NCBI GenBank assembly: GCA_964248365.1
Contig: CAXTYC010000015.1
Coordinates: forward strand, 1 to 64,000
Length of the DNA: 64,000 nucleotides
Direction of reading: 5' to 3'
Origin: an uncultured Chroococcidiopsis sp.
GTDB lineage: Bacteria > Cyanobacteriota > Cyanobacteriia > Cyanobacteriales > Chroococcidiopsidaceae
This document shows positions 42,754 through 55,805 of the stretch, one piece after another; the first letter of the stretch is position 1; every line of letters begins with the position of its first letter. Both the position numbers and the translations under genes were made by a program. Under the pieces are notes generated by a model, which was given only the letters and a program-made list of their open reading frames with translations, searched no databases and had not been told where the DNA came from.

Positions 42754-45165
42754 TTAAGCTGACAGGATTTTTGAAGAAGTTGGTGATGGGATGATATGCT
42801 TACTTAGCAAAAGTGTTGTAGCAGCCTGGCTATCTACAGGTTTAGAGAATAAATATCCCTGTCCAAATTGACAATTTAGATCTTTAAGTTGAGCCAGATG
42901 TTTCACTGTTTCCACCCCTTCAGCAACTACACTCATTCCTAAGTTACTGGCAAGTGCCATAATAGCCCGAACAATCTCCAATTGTTCGATATCAGTATCG
43001 ATTTTGTTAATAAAAGAACGATCAATTTTTAATGTATGGGTAGGCAAACGGTACAAATAAGCTAAGGATGAATAACCTGTACCAAAGTCATCAATGGAAA
43101 ATTGAATGCCTAGAGCCTGAAGTTGCAAAAGCATAGCAGTTGCAGACTCGGTATTTTCCATAATTACACTTTCGGTAATTTCTAACTTTAAACTACTAGG
43201 CTCTAATTCTGTTTCCAGCAGAATTTGTTTAATTTGTGCTATCAAATTTGGTTGAGCAAATTGCTTAGCAGAAAGATTTATGCTCATTACTAAAGATGAA
43301 TATTCGGTAAATTGCAAATGCCAGAGGCGCAGCTGACGGCAAGCTTCTCTGAATACCCACCACCCAATTGGTACAATCAAACCAGTTTCTTCTGCTAAGG
43401 GAATAAACTCTGCTGGAGAAACTAAACCCCGTTGGGGGTGCTGCCAGCGAATTAATGCTTCAAATCCTGTAATTTTACCATTTTGTAATGAAACAATTGG
43501 CTGATAATATAGCTGAAATTCCCCGCGCTCAATTCCGCGTCGTAGGTCAGTTTCTAATTGTAAAAGCACAACTGCTCGCGTGTGCATAGTGGTGTCAAAT
43601 ACCTCATAGCGAGCTTTTCCTAATGTTTTTGCACGATACATCGCTATGTCAGCATCACGCAGCAGGTCTTCCGCGCACTCATAACCAATAGTACTAGAAG
43701 CAATACCAATGCTGGCTGAGGTGAATACTTCATGTCCATCTAGATAGAAGGGCATTGTTAATTCTTCTTGCAGCCGATCAGCAATATTGGTTGTAACACT
43801 AACGTCTTTAATATCTTCTAGCAGAATTGTGAACTCATCTCCCCCCAGACGGGCGACTGTATCACCAATCCGTAGGTGCTTCTCTAGTCGGCGGGCGATC
43901 GCAATTAACAACTGATCACCAACTGCATGACCAAGACTATCATTAATCAGCTTAAAGCGATCAAGATCCAAGAAAAGTACTGCAAATGAATAATTCCTAC
44001 GCCGCTTTCCCAGAGAAAGTGCATGGCTCAACCGCTCCATGAATAAGATTCGGTTAGGCAACCCTGTCAAGGCATCGTGTAAGGCATCATGCAATAATTT
44101 TTCTTCGGTATATTTTCGAGCGCTAATATCCGTCTGTAACCCAACTATGCGATAGGCTTTTCCTGATGCATCCCTCACTACAACGGCGCGGCTGAGCATC
44201 CAACGATAGGTTCTGCCTTTACATAGAATGCGGTATTCACTTTCAAATTGCACGCTTAGCTCAGCCAGATGGTTCAGAATTTCCATCTTTATTCGTTCAA
44301 CATCTCCCGGATGGATGCGACTGAACCAATCATCTAAAGTATTCCCAATCTCGCTTTCCTGATAGTCCAGCATTGATTTCCATCGCGGCGAAAAGTAAAC
44401 CTCGTTAGTTCTCAGGTTCCAGTCCCACAGCCCATCATTGATCCCTTGCATGGCAAGGGCATAGCGCTCTTCACTCTCTTGCAGTGCTGCTTCTATCTGC
44501 TTGCGCTGGGTTATATCAATTTCTATAAAAACTGCGGCTTGCTCCTGTGTGTATTTCTGAGCAATAATCAGGTGGCTACGACAATTAGCTTTATTTTGAG
44601 TATTAATTTCTAAAGAGCTTCTTGTTGCTGGTTTAGCAAAAAAATCTTTGACAAATTCGATCCTTTCTGGGCTGCTGTTGAGAAAGTCAATAGGCTGACC
44701 AATAAAATCTTCAGGACATAAATCGAAAGCTCTAGCTAGCTGGTGGTTGACTCCAAGATATTTTAAGTTTGAACTCACCCAATAAATCTGTGCAGGAACT
44801 GCATCCAGAACAGCTTTAAATTGCTCTGTTGCTTGTTCTTGAGTATCAACAGCGCCAACTTGAGGCATAGACCAGCAGGCGATCGCAAATCCAACAAAAG
44901 TTAAAGTAATTAACACTATTACAAATAACTGGGTGCTGGAATGACCAGAGACGCTATTTAGCCCAGTACTCAGATAACTAACAACAATAGTACTGCACAG
45001 CAAAAGCAGTAGGCTCAATACTTGAGGGTTTACAAAGTTAAAGGCAATGCTTGTCGCAGATCTAGTGTAATGCTGCCACCACCATTGAGGATGAAAGGAG
45101 GCAAAAAAATACTGATTGCAGGTTAGGCGTGCAGACGAAGGCTGATTTAGACCCAGATTCTCCAT
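42754..45165 (-). CDS. Membrane-anchored PAS-PAS-GGDEF-EAL protein
   Basis: Two TM helices, PAS (DGLWDWNL...YFSPRW), DALTGLPNR, RIGD I-site, GGDEF, FEALIRW and DDFGTGYSSL. Confidence 0.93.
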   Translation of the reverse strand: MENLGLNQPSSARLTCNQYFFASFHPQWWWQHYTRSATSIAFNFVNPQVLSLLLLLCSTIVVSYLSTGLNSVSGHSSTQLFVIVLITLTFVGFAIACWSMPQVGAVDTQEQATEQFKAVLDAVPAQIYWVSSNLKYLGVNHQLARAFDLCPEDFIGQPIDFLNSSPERIEFVKDFFAKPATRSSLEINTQNKANCRSHLIIAQKYTQEQAAVFIEIDITQRKQIEAALQESEERYALAMQGINDGLWDWNLRTNEVYFSPRWKSMLDYQESEIGNTLDDWFSRIHPGDVERIKMEILNHLAELSVQFESEYRILCKGRTYRWMLSRAVVVRDASGKAYRIVGLQTDISARKYTEEKLLHDALHDALTGLPNRILFMERLSHALSLGKRRRNYSFAVLFLDLDRFKLINDSLGHAVGDQLLIAIARRLEKHLRIGDTVARLGGDEFTILLEDIKDVSVTTNIADRLQEELTMPFYLDGHEVFTSASIGIASSTIGYECAEDLLRDADIAMYRAKTLGKARYEVFDTTMHTRAVVLLQLETDLRRGIERGEFQLYYQPIVSLQNGKITGFEALIRWQHPQRGLVSPAEFIPLAEETGLIVPIGWWVFREACRQLRLWHLQFTEYSSLVMSINLSAKQFAQPNLIAQIKQILLETELEPSSLKLEITESVIMENTESATAMLLQLQALGIQFSIDDFGTGYSSLAYLYRLPTHTLKIDRSFINKIDTDIEQLEIVRAIMALASNLGMSVVAEGVETVKHLAQLKDLNCQFGQGYLFSKPVDSQAATTLLLSKHIIPSPTSSKILSA

Positions 45166-45902
45166 ATCAATTAGCTATACATCCTGAACTAAAAATTTTT
45201 GCTAAGTATTCCTGCTGGTATCAAATCTCTAAAGCTTTTAAAGCAGATATATTTGTATCCAAAACTTAATTAACTCTCTAAAATATGAATATGACTAAGT
45301 TTTACTTAATAAAAACCATTATTTTTTTTATTCACTGAATCTTTATTAAGATATTGCTCTAATTATTTTTTACTTAAATTTAAGTATTTTCTCCCAGTTT
45401 TTATTTCCAAAGCTATATTCAAGCAAAATTATTTTGTTGATTAGCTTGCTAAAATATCGAATCATATTTCTGTTGCTATAGCCTACTCTAGCAAAGTCCT
45501 CTACCAGTCTCTTGTCAACTCTTTCATTAGTTTTTTAGAAACTATCAATGTTACCTTACTGCTCCAGGGGCTTAGGTAATGCTACTCTACGAATTACATT
45601 AACATAACAATTTATATTAAATATATATCTCACCCTAAAAACAACCGAAAAAATACTTAAATTAAAACTTAAACTTCAAATCTTCAATTGCTAACGGTTT
45701 AAATGATAATTTAATAAAATAGCTTGTTTATTGCAGGTACTTAATGGAATATTAGTAACATACGACAGATAAGTTTAATCGTGTTTTTCACGTCTTTAAC
45801 CTGTAACAATACTGCTTAGTTATTGCAATTAATATAATAAAAACTAAATAAAACTTATTAACTGAAGCATTATATTTTTGAAATTCTTGAAAGAAGAAGC
45901 AG

Positions 45903-47678
45903 ATGATTGAAATTAATCTCAAGAAAATTGTCAGCAAGAAAGAAGTAATTGCCGTTTTGAATTACCTTGCCGAGGAAACAGGGGCTGCCATTCAGATTGA
46001 GGATGCAGCAGGTAAAAAACTAATCGGAGCGAACAGCGAGAATTTTACCCATAAATACCCGATAGAACTTTCAGACAAAGTGATTGGTTGGGTGCTTGGC
46101 GAGGAAAAAGTTGTCGTTGCTGCTAGCCTTATTTCCTACCTGGTAAAACAGGAGTTTGAGAAGAAGGCACTTACCAACGAATTACTAGATAAGTACCGAG
46201 AGATCACCCTACTTCATAATATTGCTACTCAAATTACTGGCAGTTTGGACTTGAAAGAGGTTGCCCAATTAGTAATTGAGGGGGTGGGGAAACTGATTGA
46301 GTCAACGGGAGGTTCAATTTTACTACTCAATCAAAAAACAAATCAGCTGGAGCCACTCTCGACATTTGGGCAAGCTTTTCCTTCCCAGGAACCTCTGAAA
46401 TTGGGAGAGGGAATTATTGGCAGCATTGCTCAAACAGGCAAGGGTGAGATTGTCAATGATGTTTTCTCTGATCTCAGGTTTACTCATTATCAAGAACTAG
46501 TCAACTCTTTCATTTGTGTACCGCTAAAGACGAAGGAGCAAATGATTGGGGTGATATTCCTTTGGAGCCATTGTACAAATGACAATAATAGTCAAAGCTC
46601 GATTACCTACACTTCCGAAGATCTGAAAATTTTGACCATGTTTGCGTTCCATGCGGCGGTAGCAATTGAAAATGCTCTGCTTTATGAGCAAACTTGTGCC
46701 GCAGCTACGGTTGCACAGGCTCAGGCACAGCAACTACAGCAAGCCCTATACGAGTTGCAACACACTCAAGCTCACCTAATTCAGAGTGAGAAGATGTCTA
46801 GCTTGGGAGAGCTTGTGGCAGGAATTGCCAATGAAATCAATAATCCAATCAACTTTATTCATGGAAATCTTACCTACGTTAGTCACTATGCCCAGAATCT
46901 GTTGACTTTGGTTAACCACTACCAGCAGTGCCACTCTACGGGTGATCCCAAAGTTAAGTCATTGTTGCAAGACATAGACATTGAATTTCTCACCGAGGAT
47001 TTACCTAAGACTTTAACTTCTATGAAAGTTGACGTAGAGCGCATTCGCAAGATCGTGCTTTCGCTGCGAAACCTCTCTCGCTCTGATGAGGTTGAGATGA
47101 AACCTGTCAATATCCACGAGGGTATCGATAGCACCCTGCTAATCTTGGAGAGCCGCCTGAAGCCAATGGGCAAGCATTCTGGCATTCGGATAGTGAAAAA
47201 TTACAGCAAACTGCCTCTGGTGGAATGCTATGCCAGTCAAATAAATCAGGTGTTTATGAATATCCTTGCTAATGCGATCGATGCCCTAGAGAATCAGACA
47301 GAACCAGGCATCATCACGATCCATACAGAAGTGAGGGAAGAATTGTCTCCTGACTTGCTACTTCCTACTACCTATGTAGTAATACGTATTCAAGACAACG
47401 GTTCTGGAATCAATCAAGAGATGCTTGCCCGCCTGTTTGATCCCTTCTTTACCACGAAGGCGCAAGGCAAGGGCGCGGGGCTAGGGCTTTCTATTAGTCA
47501 TCAGATTATCGAGAAGCATGGTGGGGCTCTAAAATGCCTATCCCAACCTGGGCAAGGGGCTATCTTTTCGATTCATATTCCAGTCAAGCCAACAATTATG
47601 TTGCAACCTATATTTCATTCTTCTACTGGCACAACAGGAATTTTTAACTCAAAGCGATCGCTTGCCCAGGTTGCCTGA
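45903..47678 (+). CDS. GAF-domain histidine kinase-like protein with the H-box His replaced by Asn
   Basis: GAF (GEGIIG, CVPL, AVAIENA); SEKMSSLGELVAGIANEINNP; N box NAIDA; DNGSG, FDPFFTTK and GKGAGLGL. Confidence 0.88.
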   Translation: MIEINLKKIVSKKEVIAVLNYLAEETGAAIQIEDAAGKKLIGANSENFTHKYPIELSDKVIGWVLGEEKVVVAASLISYLVKQEFEKKALTNELLDKYREITLLHNIATQITGSLDLKEVAQLVIEGVGKLIESTGGSILLLNQKTNQLEPLSTFGQAFPSQEPLKLGEGIIGSIAQTGKGEIVNDVFSDLRFTHYQELVNSFICVPLKTKEQMIGVIFLWSHCTNDNNSQSSITYTSEDLKILTMFAFHAAVAIENALLYEQTCAAATVAQAQAQQLQQALYELQHTQAHLIQSEKMSSLGELVAGIANEINNPINFIHGNLTYVSHYAQNLLTLVNHYQQCHSTGDPKVKSLLQDIDIEFLTEDLPKTLTSMKVDVERIRKIVLSLRNLSRSDEVEMKPVNIHEGIDSTLLILESRLKPMGKHSGIRIVKNYSKLPLVECYASQINQVFMNILANAIDALENQTEPGIITIHTEVREELSPDLLLPTTYVVIRIQDNGSGINQEMLARLFDPFFTTKAQGKGAGLGLSISHQIIEKHGGALKCLSQPGQGAIFSIHIPVKPTIMLQPIFHSSTGTTGIFNSKRSLAQVA

Positions 47679-47761: not shown

Positions 47762-50700
47762 ATGCTGAACAATTTAGAATCTACATCTATTCATCAATTG
47801 GTAGAGTCCCAAGCTTTACAAACCCCTGATGCTGTAGCGGTGATCTTTGGTCAGGAGCAACTGACCTACCGCGAACTCAACCAAAAAGCTAATCAATTAG
47901 CGCATTATCTACAAACTCTAAATGTAGGACCTGAAGTGCTAGTTGGAGTTTGTCTAGAGCGAAGTCTCTCAATGTTGATTGGGCTGTTAGGGGTTCTCAA
48001 AGCAGGTGGAGCTTATGTACCGCTAGATCCCTCCTTTCCCCAAGAAAGGTTAGCTTTCATGCTGGAGGACTCAGAAGTTCCAGTTCTGCTAACCCAACAA
48101 CATTTGCTTGAGATTTTGCCAGAGCGTGAAGGATTAAAAATTGTATGCATAGATACAGACTGGCAGGCAATAACTCAGCACACAGAAGAGAATCTTGACA
48201 GCCCAGTTAGCCCCGAAAACCTAGCCTACACTATTTATACTTCAGGCTCAACTGGCAAACCGAAAGGTGTGCAGATCGTCCATCGTGCTGTTGTTAACCT
48301 GCTTAAGTCTATGCAACAAGAGCCAGGACTCACCCAGTCAGATATTTTCCTGGGAATTACTACGATTTCCTTTGATATGTCAGTCCCAGAACTCTACTTA
48401 CCCCTGATAGTAGGTGCGCGAATTGTTCTAGTTAGACGAGAAGCGGGGAGCGATCCTGCCCAATTATCCAAGATTTTATCTGAATCTGGCGCTACCGTCA
48501 TGCAAGCTACGCCAGCAACTTGGCAACTTTTGCTCAGCGCAGGCTGGAAAGGAAATAAACAGCTAAAAATGCTGTGCGGCGGGGAAGCAATGACGCGATC
48601 GCTAGCCGATCAACTGCTCGAAAAAGGTGGCTCTGTTTGGCAGATGTACGGACCTACTGAAACGACTGTCTGGTCAGCAGTCTATCAAGTAAAGCCTGGA
48701 ATCAATCCTGTACCAATTGGTTATCCGATTGCAAATACGCAAATCTATCTCATACATGGACCAGCACGTAGGAAAGATGACTTATTACAACCTGTTCGGG
48801 TGGGAGAGCCTGGAGAAGTCTACATTGGTGGGGTAGGACTTGCTCGCGGTTATCTAAACCGTCCTGAACTCACGAGCGAAAGATTCATTCACGACCCCTT
48901 CAGTGACGATCCTGACGCACGCCTTTACAAGACTGGGGATTTAGCTCGTTACTTACCAGATGGCAGCATTGAGTTCATCGGTCGTATTGACTATCAAGTT
49001 AAAATTCGTGGTTTCCGAGTTGAGTTGGGAGACATTGAGGCAGCGCTGAGTCAATATCCAGTAGTCACAGAGGCTGCTGTTGTTGCCAAAGAAGATGCTT
49101 CTGGTAGTAAATGTCTAGTTGCATATATTGTTCCAAAGCTAGAGCCATCTGAGAAAAAAAACCTGGTTCCACAGCTGCGCGTATTTCTGAAGGAAAAACT
49201 CCCCAACTACATGGTTCCTTCAGTATTTGTTGTGATGGAATCCTTGCCCCTAACTCCTAGTGGTAAGATTGATCGGCGATCGCTCCCCGATCCGAAAAAC
49301 AGCAGAAAGAGTTTAGCAGAGGTATTTATTGCACCTTCTACCCCAATGGAGAAGCAATTAGCCCAGATTTGGTCGCAGGTTTTAGGCATTGAGGAAATAG
49401 GTATCTATGACAATTTCTTTGAGCTTGGAGGACATTCGCTCTTATCGGTTCAATTACTTTCTCAGGTAAGAGAAGCGTTTCAGGTAGATGTGCCTCTGTT
49501 TTACCTTCTTAAGGAACCAACCATAGCAGGACTGATCGAAGCGATTAATGTAGTTCAGAACTTAAGTTCTGCGGCTGTAGACAAGGAAACTGAGATAGAC
49601 TTACAAGCCGATGTTGTCCTCGACCCCACGATTAGTCCTAAGACTCCTGACGTTCAGCCTACAACAGAGCCAAAGCATATCTTTTTGACTGGAGCAACTG
49701 GTTTTCTCGGTGCTTTCTTACTACACGAGCTTCTAGAGAAAACTGGGGCAACCATCCACTGTCTAGTTCGTTCCAGAAGCCTTGAGGAAGCGGGGCAGAG
49801 AATTCAAAGTAATCTAGAACGCTACTTACTTTGGAATGAACAGTTAAGTTCCAGAATCATTCCAGTATTAGGGGATCTAACGCAACCCTTGTTAGGACTT
49901 AGTGACCAAGAGTTTTCTAAGTTGGCACTGAAGCTCGATTCAATCTATCACAATGGTGCATTCGTTAATATGGTTTATCCATACTCTGAACTTCGAGCAG
50001 CTAATGTACTGGGTACTGGGGAAGTTTTAAAATTAGCCAGTCTTGTCAAAGTTACTCCCGTCCATTTCATCTCTACTCTTGATATCTTCCAATCATCTTT
50101 CTACTCTAAGATGGATGTCATTCCTGAAAATGTTGACCTCGTCTATAGTGAAGATTATTACAATGGATACGCTCCAAGTAAATGGGTAGCTGAAAAGTTG
50201 ATGACGGCTGCACGAGAGAGGGGGATTCCTGTCTGTATTTATCGGTTAGGAATGGTGACAGGTCATAGCTATACAGGGGTTTCTCAAACAAATGATTTAA
50301 TGTGCAGATTGATCAAGGGCATGATTCAAATGGAAAGTGCGCCCCAGTTGGATCGTATGATTAACATGACTCCAGTAGACTACGTGAGCGGGGCGATCGT
50401 TCACTTATCGATGCAGCCAGAATCAATAGGGAAAGCTTTTCACCTGAACAATTCCCATCCCTTACACTTGAGCGAATTTGTTAGTGAGATCCGCGCTCTG
50501 GGCTATCCCATTGAGCAGATTCCTTACGATGAGTGGCTTTCACAGCTACTACAGCCTGATTTTTCGCGGGAAAATGTTTTGCGTCCGCTGTCTTTTCTAC
50601 TAACTAAGAGGTTTGAACAACAACTGTCCTATCTAGAGATATCCTTGCTAGCATCCCAGACATTCGATTGCCAGAACACAATCGACGGGCTTATAGGGAC

Positions 50701-50875
50701 ATCTATTGTTTGTCCACCAGTCGATGCCCAACTGTTGAATGTTTACTTTTCCTATTTCAGTCGTAGTGGTTTTCTACAACCTCCTTTAGTGGATGTTAAG
50801 GAAAGCTTCGTATTCGACCAGATACTAGAAGCTAAGACTAAGTTACAGCTACTAGTAGGCAGCGGGCAAAAATAA
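47762..50875 (+). CDS. Stand-alone NRPS-like A-T-R (adenylation-thiolation-thioester reductase) enzyme
   Basis: YTSGSTGKPKG, YGPTETT, YKTGD and PSGKIDR; carrier FFELGGHSL; reductase TGATGFLG and GYAPSKWVAE. Confidence 0.93.
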   Translation: MLNNLESTSIHQLVESQALQTPDAVAVIFGQEQLTYRELNQKANQLAHYLQTLNVGPEVLVGVCLERSLSMLIGLLGVLKAGGAYVPLDPSFPQERLAFMLEDSEVPVLLTQQHLLEILPEREGLKIVCIDTDWQAITQHTEENLDSPVSPENLAYTIYTSGSTGKPKGVQIVHRAVVNLLKSMQQEPGLTQSDIFLGITTISFDMSVPELYLPLIVGARIVLVRREAGSDPAQLSKILSESGATVMQATPATWQLLLSAGWKGNKQLKMLCGGEAMTRSLADQLLEKGGSVWQMYGPTETTVWSAVYQVKPGINPVPIGYPIANTQIYLIHGPARRKDDLLQPVRVGEPGEVYIGGVGLARGYLNRPELTSERFIHDPFSDDPDARLYKTGDLARYLPDGSIEFIGRIDYQVKIRGFRVELGDIEAALSQYPVVTEAAVVAKEDASGSKCLVAYIVPKLEPSEKKNLVPQLRVFLKEKLPNYMVPSVFVVMESLPLTPSGKIDRRSLPDPKNSRKSLAEVFIAPSTPMEKQLAQIWSQVLGIEEIGIYDNFFELGGHSLLSVQLLSQVREAFQVDVPLFYLLKEPTIAGLIEAINVVQNLSSAAVDKETEIDLQADVVLDPTISPKTPDVQPTTEPKHIFLTGATGFLGAFLLHELLEKTGATIHCLVRSRSLEEAGQRIQSNLERYLLWNEQLSSRIIPVLGDLTQPLLGLSDQEFSKLALKLDSIYHNGAFVNMVYPYSELRAANVLGTGEVLKLASLVKVTPVHFISTLDIFQSSFYSKMDVIPENVDLVYSEDYYNGYAPSKWVAEKLMTAARERGIPVCIYRLGMVTGHSYTGVSQTNDLMCRLIKGMIQMESAPQLDRMINMTPVDYVSGAIVHLSMQPESIGKAFHLNNSHPLHLSEFVSEIRALGYPIEQIPYDEWLSQLLQPDFSRENVLRPLSFLLTKRFEQQLSYLEISLLASQTFDCQNTIDGLIGTSIVCPPVDAQLLNVYFSYFSRSGFLQPPLVDVKESFVFDQILEAKTKLQLLVGSGQK

Positions 50876-51001: not shown

Positions 51002-54000
51002 GTGCCAAATATGAAGAGTACTCAGGCAGGCGTAACTTCAGCGCCCCATCTTCCTCGCACTCTCAACCCTTTGGAAACCTATGGCTTTGGACTAGCAGGA
51101 CCTCCTGGCTGGACAGGTGTAGTTGGGCTAATCCATGCGGCGCTAGCTTCACAAGCTATTTTTGTCTGGATTCCAGTGACATTGATTGGGGTGTTAATCA
51201 ACTACCAAGTGAAGCGTCTGGGGATGTCTCAGGTAGACGTAGCTGGGGGTACACCTAACTACATTTCCAGGTTGCTCAATCGTTACCCAATTGTTGCTCG
51301 CTATGCTGCAATTGGGTATCTGCTCAATTGGGTTTCAAGTATATCACTAAATGCCATTATCCTCACCGACTTGGTTCAGGGCAATCTTGAGGTATTTGGC
51401 ATTACGCTGCCCACAATGTTCGTGCGCGTCGGTTTTATGCTGTTGCCCTTTATATTGGCACTTAGTGGCACCCGTGCCTTAAGCATCCTGCTCTTATTTT
51501 TTATTCTTCCATCTATTGGGCTGCTCGTGGTATTCAGTCTACAGGGGCTGGGCTGGCTAGCACTGTCTCCAGATAGTCCTGGCTTTTTTCCCACGAGTTG
51601 GGGTGAGTTTAACTTTGCTTCCTGGGCAAAGTGGTTCTTTTTCGCAACCTTTGTTACCTACAGTAGTGAAACCGCCTCATCGTTTGTTGCCGATAGTCGC
51701 CGCCCTGTTGAAACCCTTCGCTTCCTAGACTTTGCTGCCTGGACGGGTGCAATCATCTTTATTGGTGGGGCTTGGGTAGTAATGCGATTAGCTCCTGGTG
51801 CAGCTTTAGGTTCAAGTAATTCAGACGATCCGTTTCTAAATCTAGTGGCTGCTTCCAAACCCTTTTGGGGTCAATCTGCATCACTGATTGTCACCTTCTT
51901 ACTAGGATCTTCTTGCCTGCTTACTATTGCAACGGCTGTTTCCAACTGTCCCCGAATCTTGTATCAGCTTGCCCTGGATAAGCATCTCGCACCAGTTTTT
52001 AGCGTTGTGTCACGGCAGGGAGTATTTGGTCCCGCATTAACCTTAGTTTTCGGGCTGGCAATGTTCTTTCTCCTTTGGGGAGATGTTGCCCATATTGTGG
52101 TTGTCGGTAATGTAAGCTGGTTCGTGTCCTTCACACTGCTGCATTTATCTGTCTGGTTACAACGAGGTAGAGCGGAGGTTCTGGCTCCGCGATTATCCTT
52201 GGGCATTTTTCTATTGGAAGTAATTGTCCTGTTCGTGGGTGGAATAGCTTGGGAGTGGCAATACTTTTTGATTGGGTTGCTTGCTCCGGTTGGGATTTTG
52301 ACGATTGATGCTGCCATCCGACGTATTCGATTTGCTCCCTTTCGCCCAACTTGGTGGATACAGCGATATAAAGCAAATACTTCGATCAGGATCAAAGACC
52401 TACTAATTTTCCAAGTCACTGTCCTGATCGTTTTGATCTGTGGAGCAGTTTTGATTGGTTGGGGGTTTAGATCGCTTTTAAATTCAGGTACAGCTGAGCA
52501 ATCTAACAACCTCATTCTTGTACTGATGATGATCGTTGCATTTATAGGAGTGGCGATCGCCTGCTGGACTACTTTGCCCCAGGTATTTGAGCTAGAACTC
52601 CGAGTCGAGGAGCGTACTGCCTATTTAAGTGCCATCATTGATAACTTAGCAGACGGTCTACTGGTGGTTGACCTAAATGGCAAGATTGTTCGCACGAATC
52701 CGGTTCTATTCACACTATTTGGTTTTGAAAACACCGAGTTGAGCGATCACAATTTTGAGATTGTGTTCAATCGCAAAGTTGTAGAACTAGTGGAACAGAC
52801 CCGCAAATCTCCAGAAAAAGTCTTTGTTGCGGAAATTGCCCTGACAGGTGAAAAAACGGGTAAGGCAGTGGCAACTGCCATTATGAGAAATTCGAGTTTT
52901 GCAAATGACAAAAATCAACACAATCAGTCTATTGGTTCAGTGCTGCTAATTCGAGATATCACATCTGATAAAGAAGTGGATCAGATGAAGACTGATTTTA
53001 TCTCCACAGTCTCGCACGAATTGAGAACGCCGCTAACTTCCGTACTAGGTTTTGCCAAGATTATTAAGAAAAAACTGGATGAGACAATATTTCCACTACT
53101 AAGCCCTGATGATAAGAAAGTTCAGCGCAATATACGGCAAGTAGGAGACAATATCAACATTATCTTATCAGAAGGCATCAGGCTGACCGATTTGATCAAC
53201 GATGTTCTAGACATCGCTAAGATGGAGGCAGGCAAGATTGAATGGAAAATGGAACCGCTGCAGATAACTGAGGTTGTAGAACGGGCGATCGCTGCTACCT
53301 CTGCTCTATTCCAACAGAAAGACCTAAAATTGATTCAGGAAATCGAACCAGGGTTGCCCTCTGTTATGGGCGATCGCGATCGATTGATCCAAGTAGTCAT
53401 TAACCTGATCTCCAATGCGGTGAAGTTTACTGACAATGGCTCAGTTACTTGCACAGTGGGTAAAGATGACAACACAATTACCGTTAGCATAATTGACGCG
53501 GGTATAGGTATTGCCTCGTCTGACCTAGACAAGGTATTTGAGAAATTCAAGCAGGTTGGTGATACACTCACTGACAAACCCAAAGGCACTGGTTTAGGGC
53601 TACCTATCTGTAAACAAATTGTGGAACATCATGGGGGTAGAATTTGGGTTGAAAGCGAACTGGGCAAGGGTAGTAATTTCTCCTTTACCTTACCGATAAG
53701 TACTGCTTGCGAAATGAAGATCAAGACCTTAGATATGGATACTTTGGTCAAGCAGCTGCGGGAACACGTAGTCATAAACTCATCTGTTTCGGCAGCCCGT
53801 CAGAAAAATATTTTAGTGGTGGATGACGATGCCAATATCCGGCAACTGCTGCGGCAACAACTAGAAGCTGAAGGCTACATAATCAGAGAAGCAAAGGACG
53901 GGATAGAGGCGATCGCACAGGTTAAAAAATCCGTCCCCGATTTGATTATTCTAGATGTGATGATGCCTGAAATGAGCGGCTTTGATGTTGCTGCTGTACT

Positions 54001-54560: not shown

Positions 54561-54938
54561 ATGAATCAGAAAATCTTGATTGTAGATGATGAACCCCATG
54601 TCAGGCTACTAATAGAGCAAACGTTGGAAGAGTTAGAAGATGAAGGAGTAGAGCTGTTATTTGCGGAAAATGGAGAATTAGCGCTAGAAATAATTAAAAA
54701 CGAAAAACCTCAACTCGTTTTTTTGGATGTGATGATGCCCAAAATGAACGGTTTTGACGTGTGCAATTGGGTTAAGCATAAATTGGGTCTTGAAGATATT
54801 TACATCGTTATGCTAACTGCTAAAGGTCAGGAATTTGATAGGCAAAAAAGCATTGAAGTTGGAGCTGATATGTATACTACCAAGCCATTTGATCCTGATG
54901 AAATTCTTAAGAAGTCCCAAGAAGTGCTGGGTATCTAA
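54561..54938 (+). CDS. Single-domain response regulator
   Basis: LIVDDE, FLDVMMPKMNG, MLTAKG and KPF motifs. Confidence 0.93.
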   Translation: MNQKILIVDDEPHVRLLIEQTLEELEDEGVELLFAENGELALEIIKNEKPQLVFLDVMMPKMNGFDVCNWVKHKLGLEDIYIVMLTAKGQEFDRQKSIEVGADMYTTKPFDPDEILKKSQEVLGI

Positions 54939-55055: not shown

Positions 55056-55805
55056 GTGTTAAATAGTCATGGGATGTGGCATCCACCACCCATAGAATTA
55101 ACATTATCCAAGAGTGATGTTCATGTTTGGCGTGCTAGTCTCGACCAACCAGCAGGACGTATTCAACAGCTAGCACAAACTCTTTCTGCTGACGAACATC
55201 TTCGGGCGGAACGTTTCTACTTTGATCTCGATAGAGCGCGTTTTATCGTCGGTCGAGGGCTACTTAGAGCAATCCTGAGTCGTTACTTGGGTATGGCTGC
55301 CAATCAATTACAGTTTTGTTATAGCTCTCGTGGTAAACCGGATTTGACAAAAACGTCAGGTGGAGATAGGCTGCGGTTTAACTTATCTCATTCCCAAGGA
55401 CTCGTTTTGTATGCAGTGAGTTGGGATCGCTCTATTGGCATCGATCTTGAACACATTCGTCCAATTGCCGATATTGAGCAGATCGTCAAAAGCTTTTTTT
55501 CAGACTATGAAAAGACTGTCTTTGAACACCTTCCTCCACACCAAAAACAAGTAGCATTTTTTAATTGCTGGACTCGTAAGGAAGCTTTCATCAAAGCCGT
55601 TGGTGAGGGGTTGGCTTTACCCCTCGATTCTTTTGATGTCTCACTTGCTCCTGGTGAACCAGCCAGACTACTAAGAATCAAAAGCGAAAGAGCAATATCA
55701 AAGCGCTGGACACTTCAAGACTTGACGCCAGCGCCAAATTATGCTGCTGCCTTAGCTGTCGAAGGAAAAGGATGGAATTTTGCCTGTTGGGAATGGGCTG
55801 AGTGA
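55056..55805 (+). CDS. Sfp-type 4'-phosphopantetheinyl transferase (HetI-like)
   Basis: GKP, FNLSHS, IGIDLE and WTRKEAFIKAVGEGL motifs. Confidence 0.93.
   Translation: MLNSHGMWHPPPIELTLSKSDVHVWRASLDQPAGRIQQLAQTLSADEHLRAERFYFDLDRARFIVGRGLLRAILSRYLGMAANQLQFCYSSRGKPDLTKTSGGDRLRFNLSHSQGLVLYAVSWDRSIGIDLEHIRPIADIEQIVKSFFSDYEKTVFEHLPPHQKQVAFFNCWTRKEAFIKAVGEGLALPLDSFDVSLAPGEPARLLRIKSERAISKRWTLQDLTPAPNYAAALAVEGKGWNFACWEWAE

Follow-up and report, generated by a model that had tools for sequence, protein, structure and literature searches.

Why does a c-di-GMP enzyme that carries no transporter begin with homologues of the two predicted membrane helices that end the sensor of a hybrid kinase encoded a few genes away, and what do those helices do there? 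The question arises from a stretch of 64,000 nucleotides from an uncultured Chroococcidiopsis sp. (the window), where the enzyme gene is divergent from a cluster comprising two histidine kinases, a response regulator, an NRPS-like enzyme and a phosphopantetheinyl transferase (PPTase). The shared unit of about 85 residues is named MOD here, and the features discussed below are collected in Table 1. Our analysis points to an old, permease-less offshoot of a family of transporter-like sensors, in which the hairpin probably persists as a membrane anchor.

Table 1. Positions and strands of the enzyme gene, the neighbouring cluster and their parts in the window
Feature	Positions	Strand
Clade A MOD-PAS-PAS-GGDEF-EAL gene, permease-less, 803 aa	42754..45165	-
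GGDEF (43615-44085) and EAL (42838-43548)	42838..44085	-
PAS_3 domain	44116..44490	-
PAS1; belongs to a mobile PAS family widespread in cyanobacteria, unlike the usual PAS of the permease family	44500..44826	-
Linker from conserved Trp to first PAS, 2 residues short of the permease-bearing spacing	44803..44874	-
MOD, eroded copy: W-rich helix, hydrophobic helix 1, short loop, hydrophobic helix 2 with ACW..PQ end	44857..45105	-
Divergent intergenic region, AT-rich (26% GC), no permease remnant	45166..45902	.
GAF histidine kinase of the cluster	45903..47678	+
NRPS-like adenylation-carrier-reductase enzyme, single module	47762..50875	+
Hybrid kinase permease-MOD-PAS-HisKA-HATPase-REC, 1147 aa	51002..54445	+
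Permease-like domain, 12 helices, APC fold; predicted fold similar to LAT1, AdiC, ApcT	51032..52324	+
Intact MOD; predicted helix 449-461, TM13 465-493, TM14 498-548 into PAS; sensor-swap junction just after PQV	52331..52585	+
Single-domain response regulator	54561..54938	+
4'-phosphopantetheinyl transferase	55056..55805	+

The shared unit in the enzyme and the hybrid kinase

The preliminary description proposed that the N-terminus of the enzyme is homologous to the last two transmembrane helices of the permease-kinase, and the peptides it quoted were verified at both MOD positions of Table 1. A BLASTP comparison of the two whole proteins gave 65 bits with an E-value of 1e-14 and 41 identities in 131 positions; the alignment joins residues 21-147 of the enzyme to 444-573 of the kinase and extends into the PAS domains of both. 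The local alignment score of the two copies is 140, compared with a maximum of 64 among 3000 full shuffles and of 92 among 3000 shuffles within 10-residue windows, which preserve the hydrophobic pattern; none of the latter reached the real score. The homology is thus confirmed. Two hydrophobic helices are found in each copy, and a tblastn search of the whole genome returned these two copies only, the next match having an E-value of 0.049. As described earlier, a PAS domain comes next in both proteins: that of the kinase passes Pfam, while the first PAS of the enzyme has no Pfam match and is 43-50% identical to a PAS family widespread in cyanobacteria. This PAS1-type subfamily (LxAVLDAVPG...YLGVN, also seen in L120-L135) is very common, and 214 of 401 genomes in the order had matches to a profile that contained it.

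The unit itself corresponds to no named family in the resources searched. Nothing better than E 0.012 was obtained with it from Pfam, and nothing better than E 0.0055 with the kinase copy from NCBIfam; the best 60 matches of a PDB sequence search were to kinase and PAS regions only, and the ESM Atlas gave nothing usable for the unit apart from one lead, at 0.75, to APC permeases. The absence of a permease core from the enzyme, also part of the preliminary description, was upheld for the reading frame and for the upstream DNA, where 737 nt contain no significant tblastn match to the permease.

The enzyme has its GGDEF motif at residue 441 and an RxxD I-site at 432. Its sequence contains the GGDEF and EAL catalytic motifs GGDEF, FEAL, EITES, DDFGTG, AEGVE and QGY, so that both putative catalytic sets are present. 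Its MOD motif (FxPxWW...QV...AIACWTxLPQ) is eroded: against a profile of 89 full-length units built without the enzyme, it scores 70 bits, intact copies scoring 109-126. The enzyme shares the GGDEF-EAL core and both motif sets with membrane-anchored PAS-PAS-GGDEF-EAL hybrids, the best NCBIfam profiles being the Tlr1612 family and DibA. However, its scores lie far under the family cut-offs (544 vs 1600 and 515 vs 980, respectively), and its N-terminal hairpin, unlike theirs, comes from a permease cassette.

Permease and hairpin as a proposed sensory cassette

A MOD profile built from 26 copies matched 52 of 401 genomes sampled from the phylum and 15 of 28 in the family of the window; all named matches are cyanobacterial. 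We classified 123 proteins, namely three plus the listed 120 of 159 matches. Among the matches listed, a full permease precedes MOD in 92 of the 123 (83 with kinase, seven with GGDEF and two with other outputs), while 24 are permease-less GGDEF-EAL proteins (four of the window type and 20 of a second type, many of them near-identical) and seven are partial kinases. The domain-architecture listing proposed with the preliminary description therefore shows permease-MOD to be the norm, with transporter and output on one chain in the window kinase and these 92 homologues but not in the window enzyme. The genome loci that we fetched, which cover only part of the profile matches in the phylum sample, show 62 full-length genes among 80 distinct ORFs, the others being 11 permease-less GGDEF-EAL genes, one gene at a contig edge and six partial or broken ones. 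A search for stand-alone MOD among proteins of 48-158 aa, in which the top 8000 candidates were scored, gave two matches, both fragment-like.

In an AlphaFold2 model of kinase residues 1-660 (pLDDT 88, pTM 0.83), the 12-helix core is confident, mostly with pLDDT above 90, while the MOD part reaches 67-83 and consists of the short W-rich helix, TM13 and TM14, the last being one long helix that runs into the PAS domain. Foldseek aligned the first 441 residues to LAT1, AdiC and ApcT with E-values of 1e-9 to 3e-8, probability 1.00 and TM-scores by target of about 0.7; the matches listed are APC and cation-chloride cotransporter structures. The permease domain also matches AA_permease of Pfam (E 5e-5). 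The N-terminus of the kinase is thus predicted to have a LeuT-type 12-helix APC fold like that of LAT1, AdiC, ApcT and KimA; unlike these transporters, to which identity is 13-18%, it is followed by two additional helices and a catalytic signalling output. A model of the unit alone was of low confidence (pTM 0.38) and was left out of the fold search.

The passage from hairpin to output is strictly spaced. In all 57 permease-bearing members matched by the pattern, the PAS domain directly follows MOD, with D, N or Y exactly 25 residues past the conserved Trp. The pattern recognised 57 of the 92 full proteins; most of the other 35 have no direct PAS, and four are similar by eye. The window kinase satisfies this spacing, whereas the enzyme falls two residues short. 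We infer from these regularities that permease and MOD form a swappable input cassette in which the last MOD helix acts as transmitter. In intact members, a ligand or a conformational change in the APC-fold domain would move the hairpin, with the last MOD helix extending into PAS, DHp or GGDEF in the form of a coiled coil. Swaps among outputs would involve the cassette up to its end at PQV. Of the earlier notion of an unnamed transducer or docking module, the first half stands: MOD is a conserved two-helix element without a family name, and it sits between a transporter-like domain and outputs of various kinds. The docking half is poorly supported.

Several other members bear on the plasticity of the family. 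P0099 has a permease-MOD region 82% identical to that of the window kinase fused to PAS-GGDEF-EAL, a further sign of cassette swapping. In some kinases the permease core is deleted or broken (L039, L077, L078, L088); in L039, an internal deletion has produced TM12-MOD-PAS-kinase in one frame, and P0111, with 452 aa, is perhaps a truncated kinase. Permease-MOD genes also stand in tandem about 3 kb apart, with three matches in G172:C1 (1184777-1191388) and two in G030:C1 (831621-835078).

The closest known system is that of the SLC5-STAC transceptors, which include CbrA, CrbS and RpuS (PMC13022988, PMC5715377, PMC4834066, PMC9100948, as far as the available portions of these reports describe them). 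There, STAC links SLC5 to kinases or GGDEF and also occurs alone (PMC5715377, available text), and its structure has been described (PMC4834066, available text). Both systems, as those portions present SLC5-STAC, combine a LeuT-fold-type transporter, a dedicated linker module as the candidate coupling element and PAS-kinase or GGDEF outputs. They differ in that the transporter here has the predicted APC amino-acid-permease fold and no SLC5 symporter domain is present; the linker is a predicted membrane hairpin with a short helix, while STAC is described as a soluble four-helix bundle; and the named MOD matches are all cyanobacterial, with no convincing stand-alone MOD found. A second parallel is offered by CbrX, a two-helix peptide reported together with the structure of CbrA (PMC13022988, in part). 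Like MOD, CbrX is a two-helix membrane element, and the accessible part of that source has it packing with the transporter and, in a model, lying at the interface of the dimer. Whereas CbrX is a peptide of its own, MOD is fused and runs on into the output; the likeness drawn here is one of description. The available text of another source states that few prokaryotic transceptors are known and holds no occurrence of 'APC' or 'cyanobacteri' (PMC11109136). Our literature search, mostly in open texts, found no description of a cyanobacterial APC-permease sensor fusion, though supplementary domain tables could mention one; an APC-fold sensor cassette with a membrane hairpin is apparently undescribed so far.

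History of the permease-less enzymes

In a quick tree of the GGDEF-EAL domains (38 rows), the window gene belongs to clade A (12 rows, SH-aLRT 100), every member of which is permease-less. Clade B, with four helices (TM11-12 and MOD), is nested among full-length genes (support 99) and represents a separate loss; L079 may be a third. The hairpin has thus probably been retained through at least two, and probably three, independent losses of the permease. Members of clade B (L080, L089-L092; P0078, P0104, P0098) adjoin a HEAT-repeat gene where another genus has a full-length gene, and some of them also lack the first PAS.

The preliminary description allowed that the enzyme might be just a 5'-truncated copy if its orthologues all carried a full permease; all 13 sampled orthologues are without one. 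A fresh 5' truncation or frameshift was rejected, since no upstream remnant exists and the architecture is common to these 13, the window enzyme lying within an old, wholly permease-less clade. Recent duplication from the neighbouring kinase is likewise unlikely at 33% identity, that kinase being the 59th of 92 matches; a short MOD tree, however, did not reject a joint clade of the two (p-AU 0.105).

The PAS domains point to a chimeric origin. PAS1 of clade A member P0100 is 43-50% identical over about 113 aa to the widespread PAS family, while the best PAS of the permease family reaches 38% over 58 aa; PAS1 is thus foreign to the permease family, and MOD appears fused to a foreign PAS-PAS-GGDEF-EAL body, in P0100 and P0005 in register. 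Among the homologues and loci analysed, none was a permease-bearing protein with PAS1 of the clade A type, so a full-length ancestor is a conjecture and the hairpin could have been grafted alone. In an order-wide search of 401 genomes, the best 150 matches included none to full-length clade A from beyond the genus, and pattern scans found only loci of the dCache type (at least two in metagenomes, one in genomes). Taken together, the window gene is probably an old sensor-less offshoot of the APC-fold cassette family.

The enzyme gene has kept its place beside the cluster through changes of sensor. The divergent place of the enzyme gene beside the GAF kinase, NRPS-like gene and hybrid kinase is maintained in L082-L085, L102 and L103, and in another genus (L093, L094) a full permease-MOD-PAS-PAS-GGDEF-EAL gene directly precedes NRPS-like and PPTase genes. 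The window hybrid kinase is a chimera: its PAS-kinase-REC core is 76-79% identical to dCache-HAMP kinases, and the junction lies right after PQV with the +25 spacing retained. Between the window and L082-L085, L102 and L103, the entire input of the cluster kinase has been exchanged, permease-MOD against dCache-HAMP, at a single junction before ELELRV(E/Q)ERT; the dCache region of L084 is unlike that of the other dCache loci. Parsimony on the kinase tree makes the permease-type sensor ancestral in the cluster.

An adenylation-carrier-reductase enzyme with a PPTase recurs beside these sensors (window 47762-50875; L082:2731-7176, L093:2098-6639, L095:9989-13240), and in L082 and L093 a methyltransferase interrupts its adenylation domain. 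Its product could be the small molecule read by the sensors. The PPTase gene ends the operon opposite to the GGDEF-EAL gene in the window, unlike in L082-L085, L102 and L103, where it lies directly downstream of that gene on the same strand. In G003 (L085:12758-19999), stops or frameshifts break both the NRPS-like gene and the gene of the dCache kinase, and the GGDEF-EAL orthologue is intact.

What the hairpin may do without its permease

We consider it probable that the hairpin, under relaxed selection, now serves the enzyme as an anchor in the membrane or a scaffold for dimerisation, the permease having been lost in a distant ancestor and the permease relay with it. In that ancestor, the cassette would likely have been fused in register to a protein of PAS-PAS-GGDEF-EAL architecture, with loss of the 12-helix core following later; the present enzyme would be regulated through its PAS domains and the I-site. 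Rates of substitution were estimated by the Nei-Gojobori method, summed over non-independent pairs, with a codon bootstrap. In the lineage with a dCache kinase, MOD has a dN/dS of 0.46 (95% CI 0.27-0.78), followed by 0.26 for PAS1, 0.13 for PAS3 and 0.035 for GGDEF-EAL. Values for MOD in the full-length sets are 0.19, 0.22, 0.40 and 0.44, two of which overlap the clade A value, and its excess over the rest of the gene is about 13-fold in clade A; for three full-length sets, the excess relative to the kinase domain is 1.4- to 2.3-fold. Both helices are hydrophobic in all 12 clade A proteins tested, and the frame is open in every clade A member at a near-saturated catalytic-core dS of 1.6-2.2. 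At the level of sequence, the evolution of the hairpin is thus relaxed yet non-neutral, a pattern that fits a membrane hairpin kept as such rather than a specific interface. The linkers of clade A (n=13) take five lengths relative to the ancestral one, 0, -2 (window), -4, +3 and -9, and further in-frame insertions, of 3 and 6 nt, occur there in low-depth contigs from close relatives. Two observations count against the anchor: P0100 and P0126 are permease-less yet have a near-intact motif (100-104 bits) at the ancestral spacing, and motif decay is strongest in the dCache lineage.

The latter contrast is what recommends the alternative put forward in the preliminary description, that the enzyme docks onto the permease-kinase of the cluster through the hairpin and borrows its sensor, coupling c-di-GMP to the phosphorelay. 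The window genome has both the permease-kinase and the motif, which has decayed in all six loci with a dCache kinase (14-27 bits in five of the six, with L083 similar in a separate scoring, against 61-104 in other clade A members). The fusion of a foreign PAS in register in P0100 and P0005, the ancestral permease-type sensor of the cluster and the structural precedent of CbrX on the CbrA transporter (PMC13022988, available part) point the same way. If docking were true, phosphorelay and c-di-GMP turnover would both be driven by one transporter-like receptor, and decay of the motif would be expected only after its partner had exchanged the permease for dCache. We nevertheless regard it as unlikely. 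The decay amounts to one contrast in the phylogeny, and the dCache lineage also shows faster PAS1 and PAS3 (1.0 and 0.30 for P0100 vs L082; 0.28 and 0.11 for P0100 vs P0005). Clade B keeps its motif (94-99 bits, with a dN/dS of 0.19) in G001-G004, in which searches for a permease core were negative. The window copy is eroded and its spacing shifted, and among the 92 ranked matches to this copy the neighbouring kinase comes no higher than 59th. Moreover, kinases and GGDEF-EAL enzymes both act as homodimers, so that a hairpin-to-hairpin heterodimer would be unproductive.

Genomes with a dCache-HAMP cluster kinase also weigh against borrowing. In G001-G004 (99-100% complete), the window permease query found no match in any of the four, and what a second permease query returned was confined to the TM11-12 remnant of clade B (G001, G003, G004, G006) and one short piece in G013. 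Each of G001-G004 nevertheless has an intact clade A orthologue (65% identity). The enzyme-type gene therefore occurs where no permease-bearing partner was found, which counts against the proposed borrowing. The divergent gene adjoins the cluster whether or not a permease is present, and its position can be accounted for without pairing.

That the hairpin is instead a useless, near-neutral relic, persisting only as the in-frame start of a needed gene, seems less likely still. Erosion across clade A is graded, from 104 to 14 bits, in-frame indels are many, the dN/dS interval of the TM11-12 remnant in clade B includes 1, and kinase genes show permease deletions too (L039, L077). Yet the dN/dS of MOD remains below 1 with an upper bound of 0.78, the hydrophobicity and open frame have survived near-saturation of synonymous sites in every member, and the hairpin has apparently outlived each permease loss. 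More improbable again is a minimal membrane-state sensor that reads fluidity, hydration or thickness and controls the enzyme via the linker, for which DesK, itself a minimal sensor, offers an analogy: a W-rich helix is predicted ahead of the hairpin, and motif and spacing are conserved without a fused permease in clade B and P0100/P0126, but linker length varies within the window's own subclade.

For the family as a whole, a probable anchor left behind by a lost permease is one outcome of a wider architecture. In Cyanobacteria, an APC-fold permease with a conserved hairpin would form a swappable input for kinases and c-di-GMP enzymes, a parallel to SLC5-STAC in which both the transporter family and the linker differ. 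The lineages with permease-kinases and dCache-kinases provide a ready natural experiment on docking, and the fixed helix spacing together with the natural chimeras makes the coupling of transporter to enzyme directly testable.
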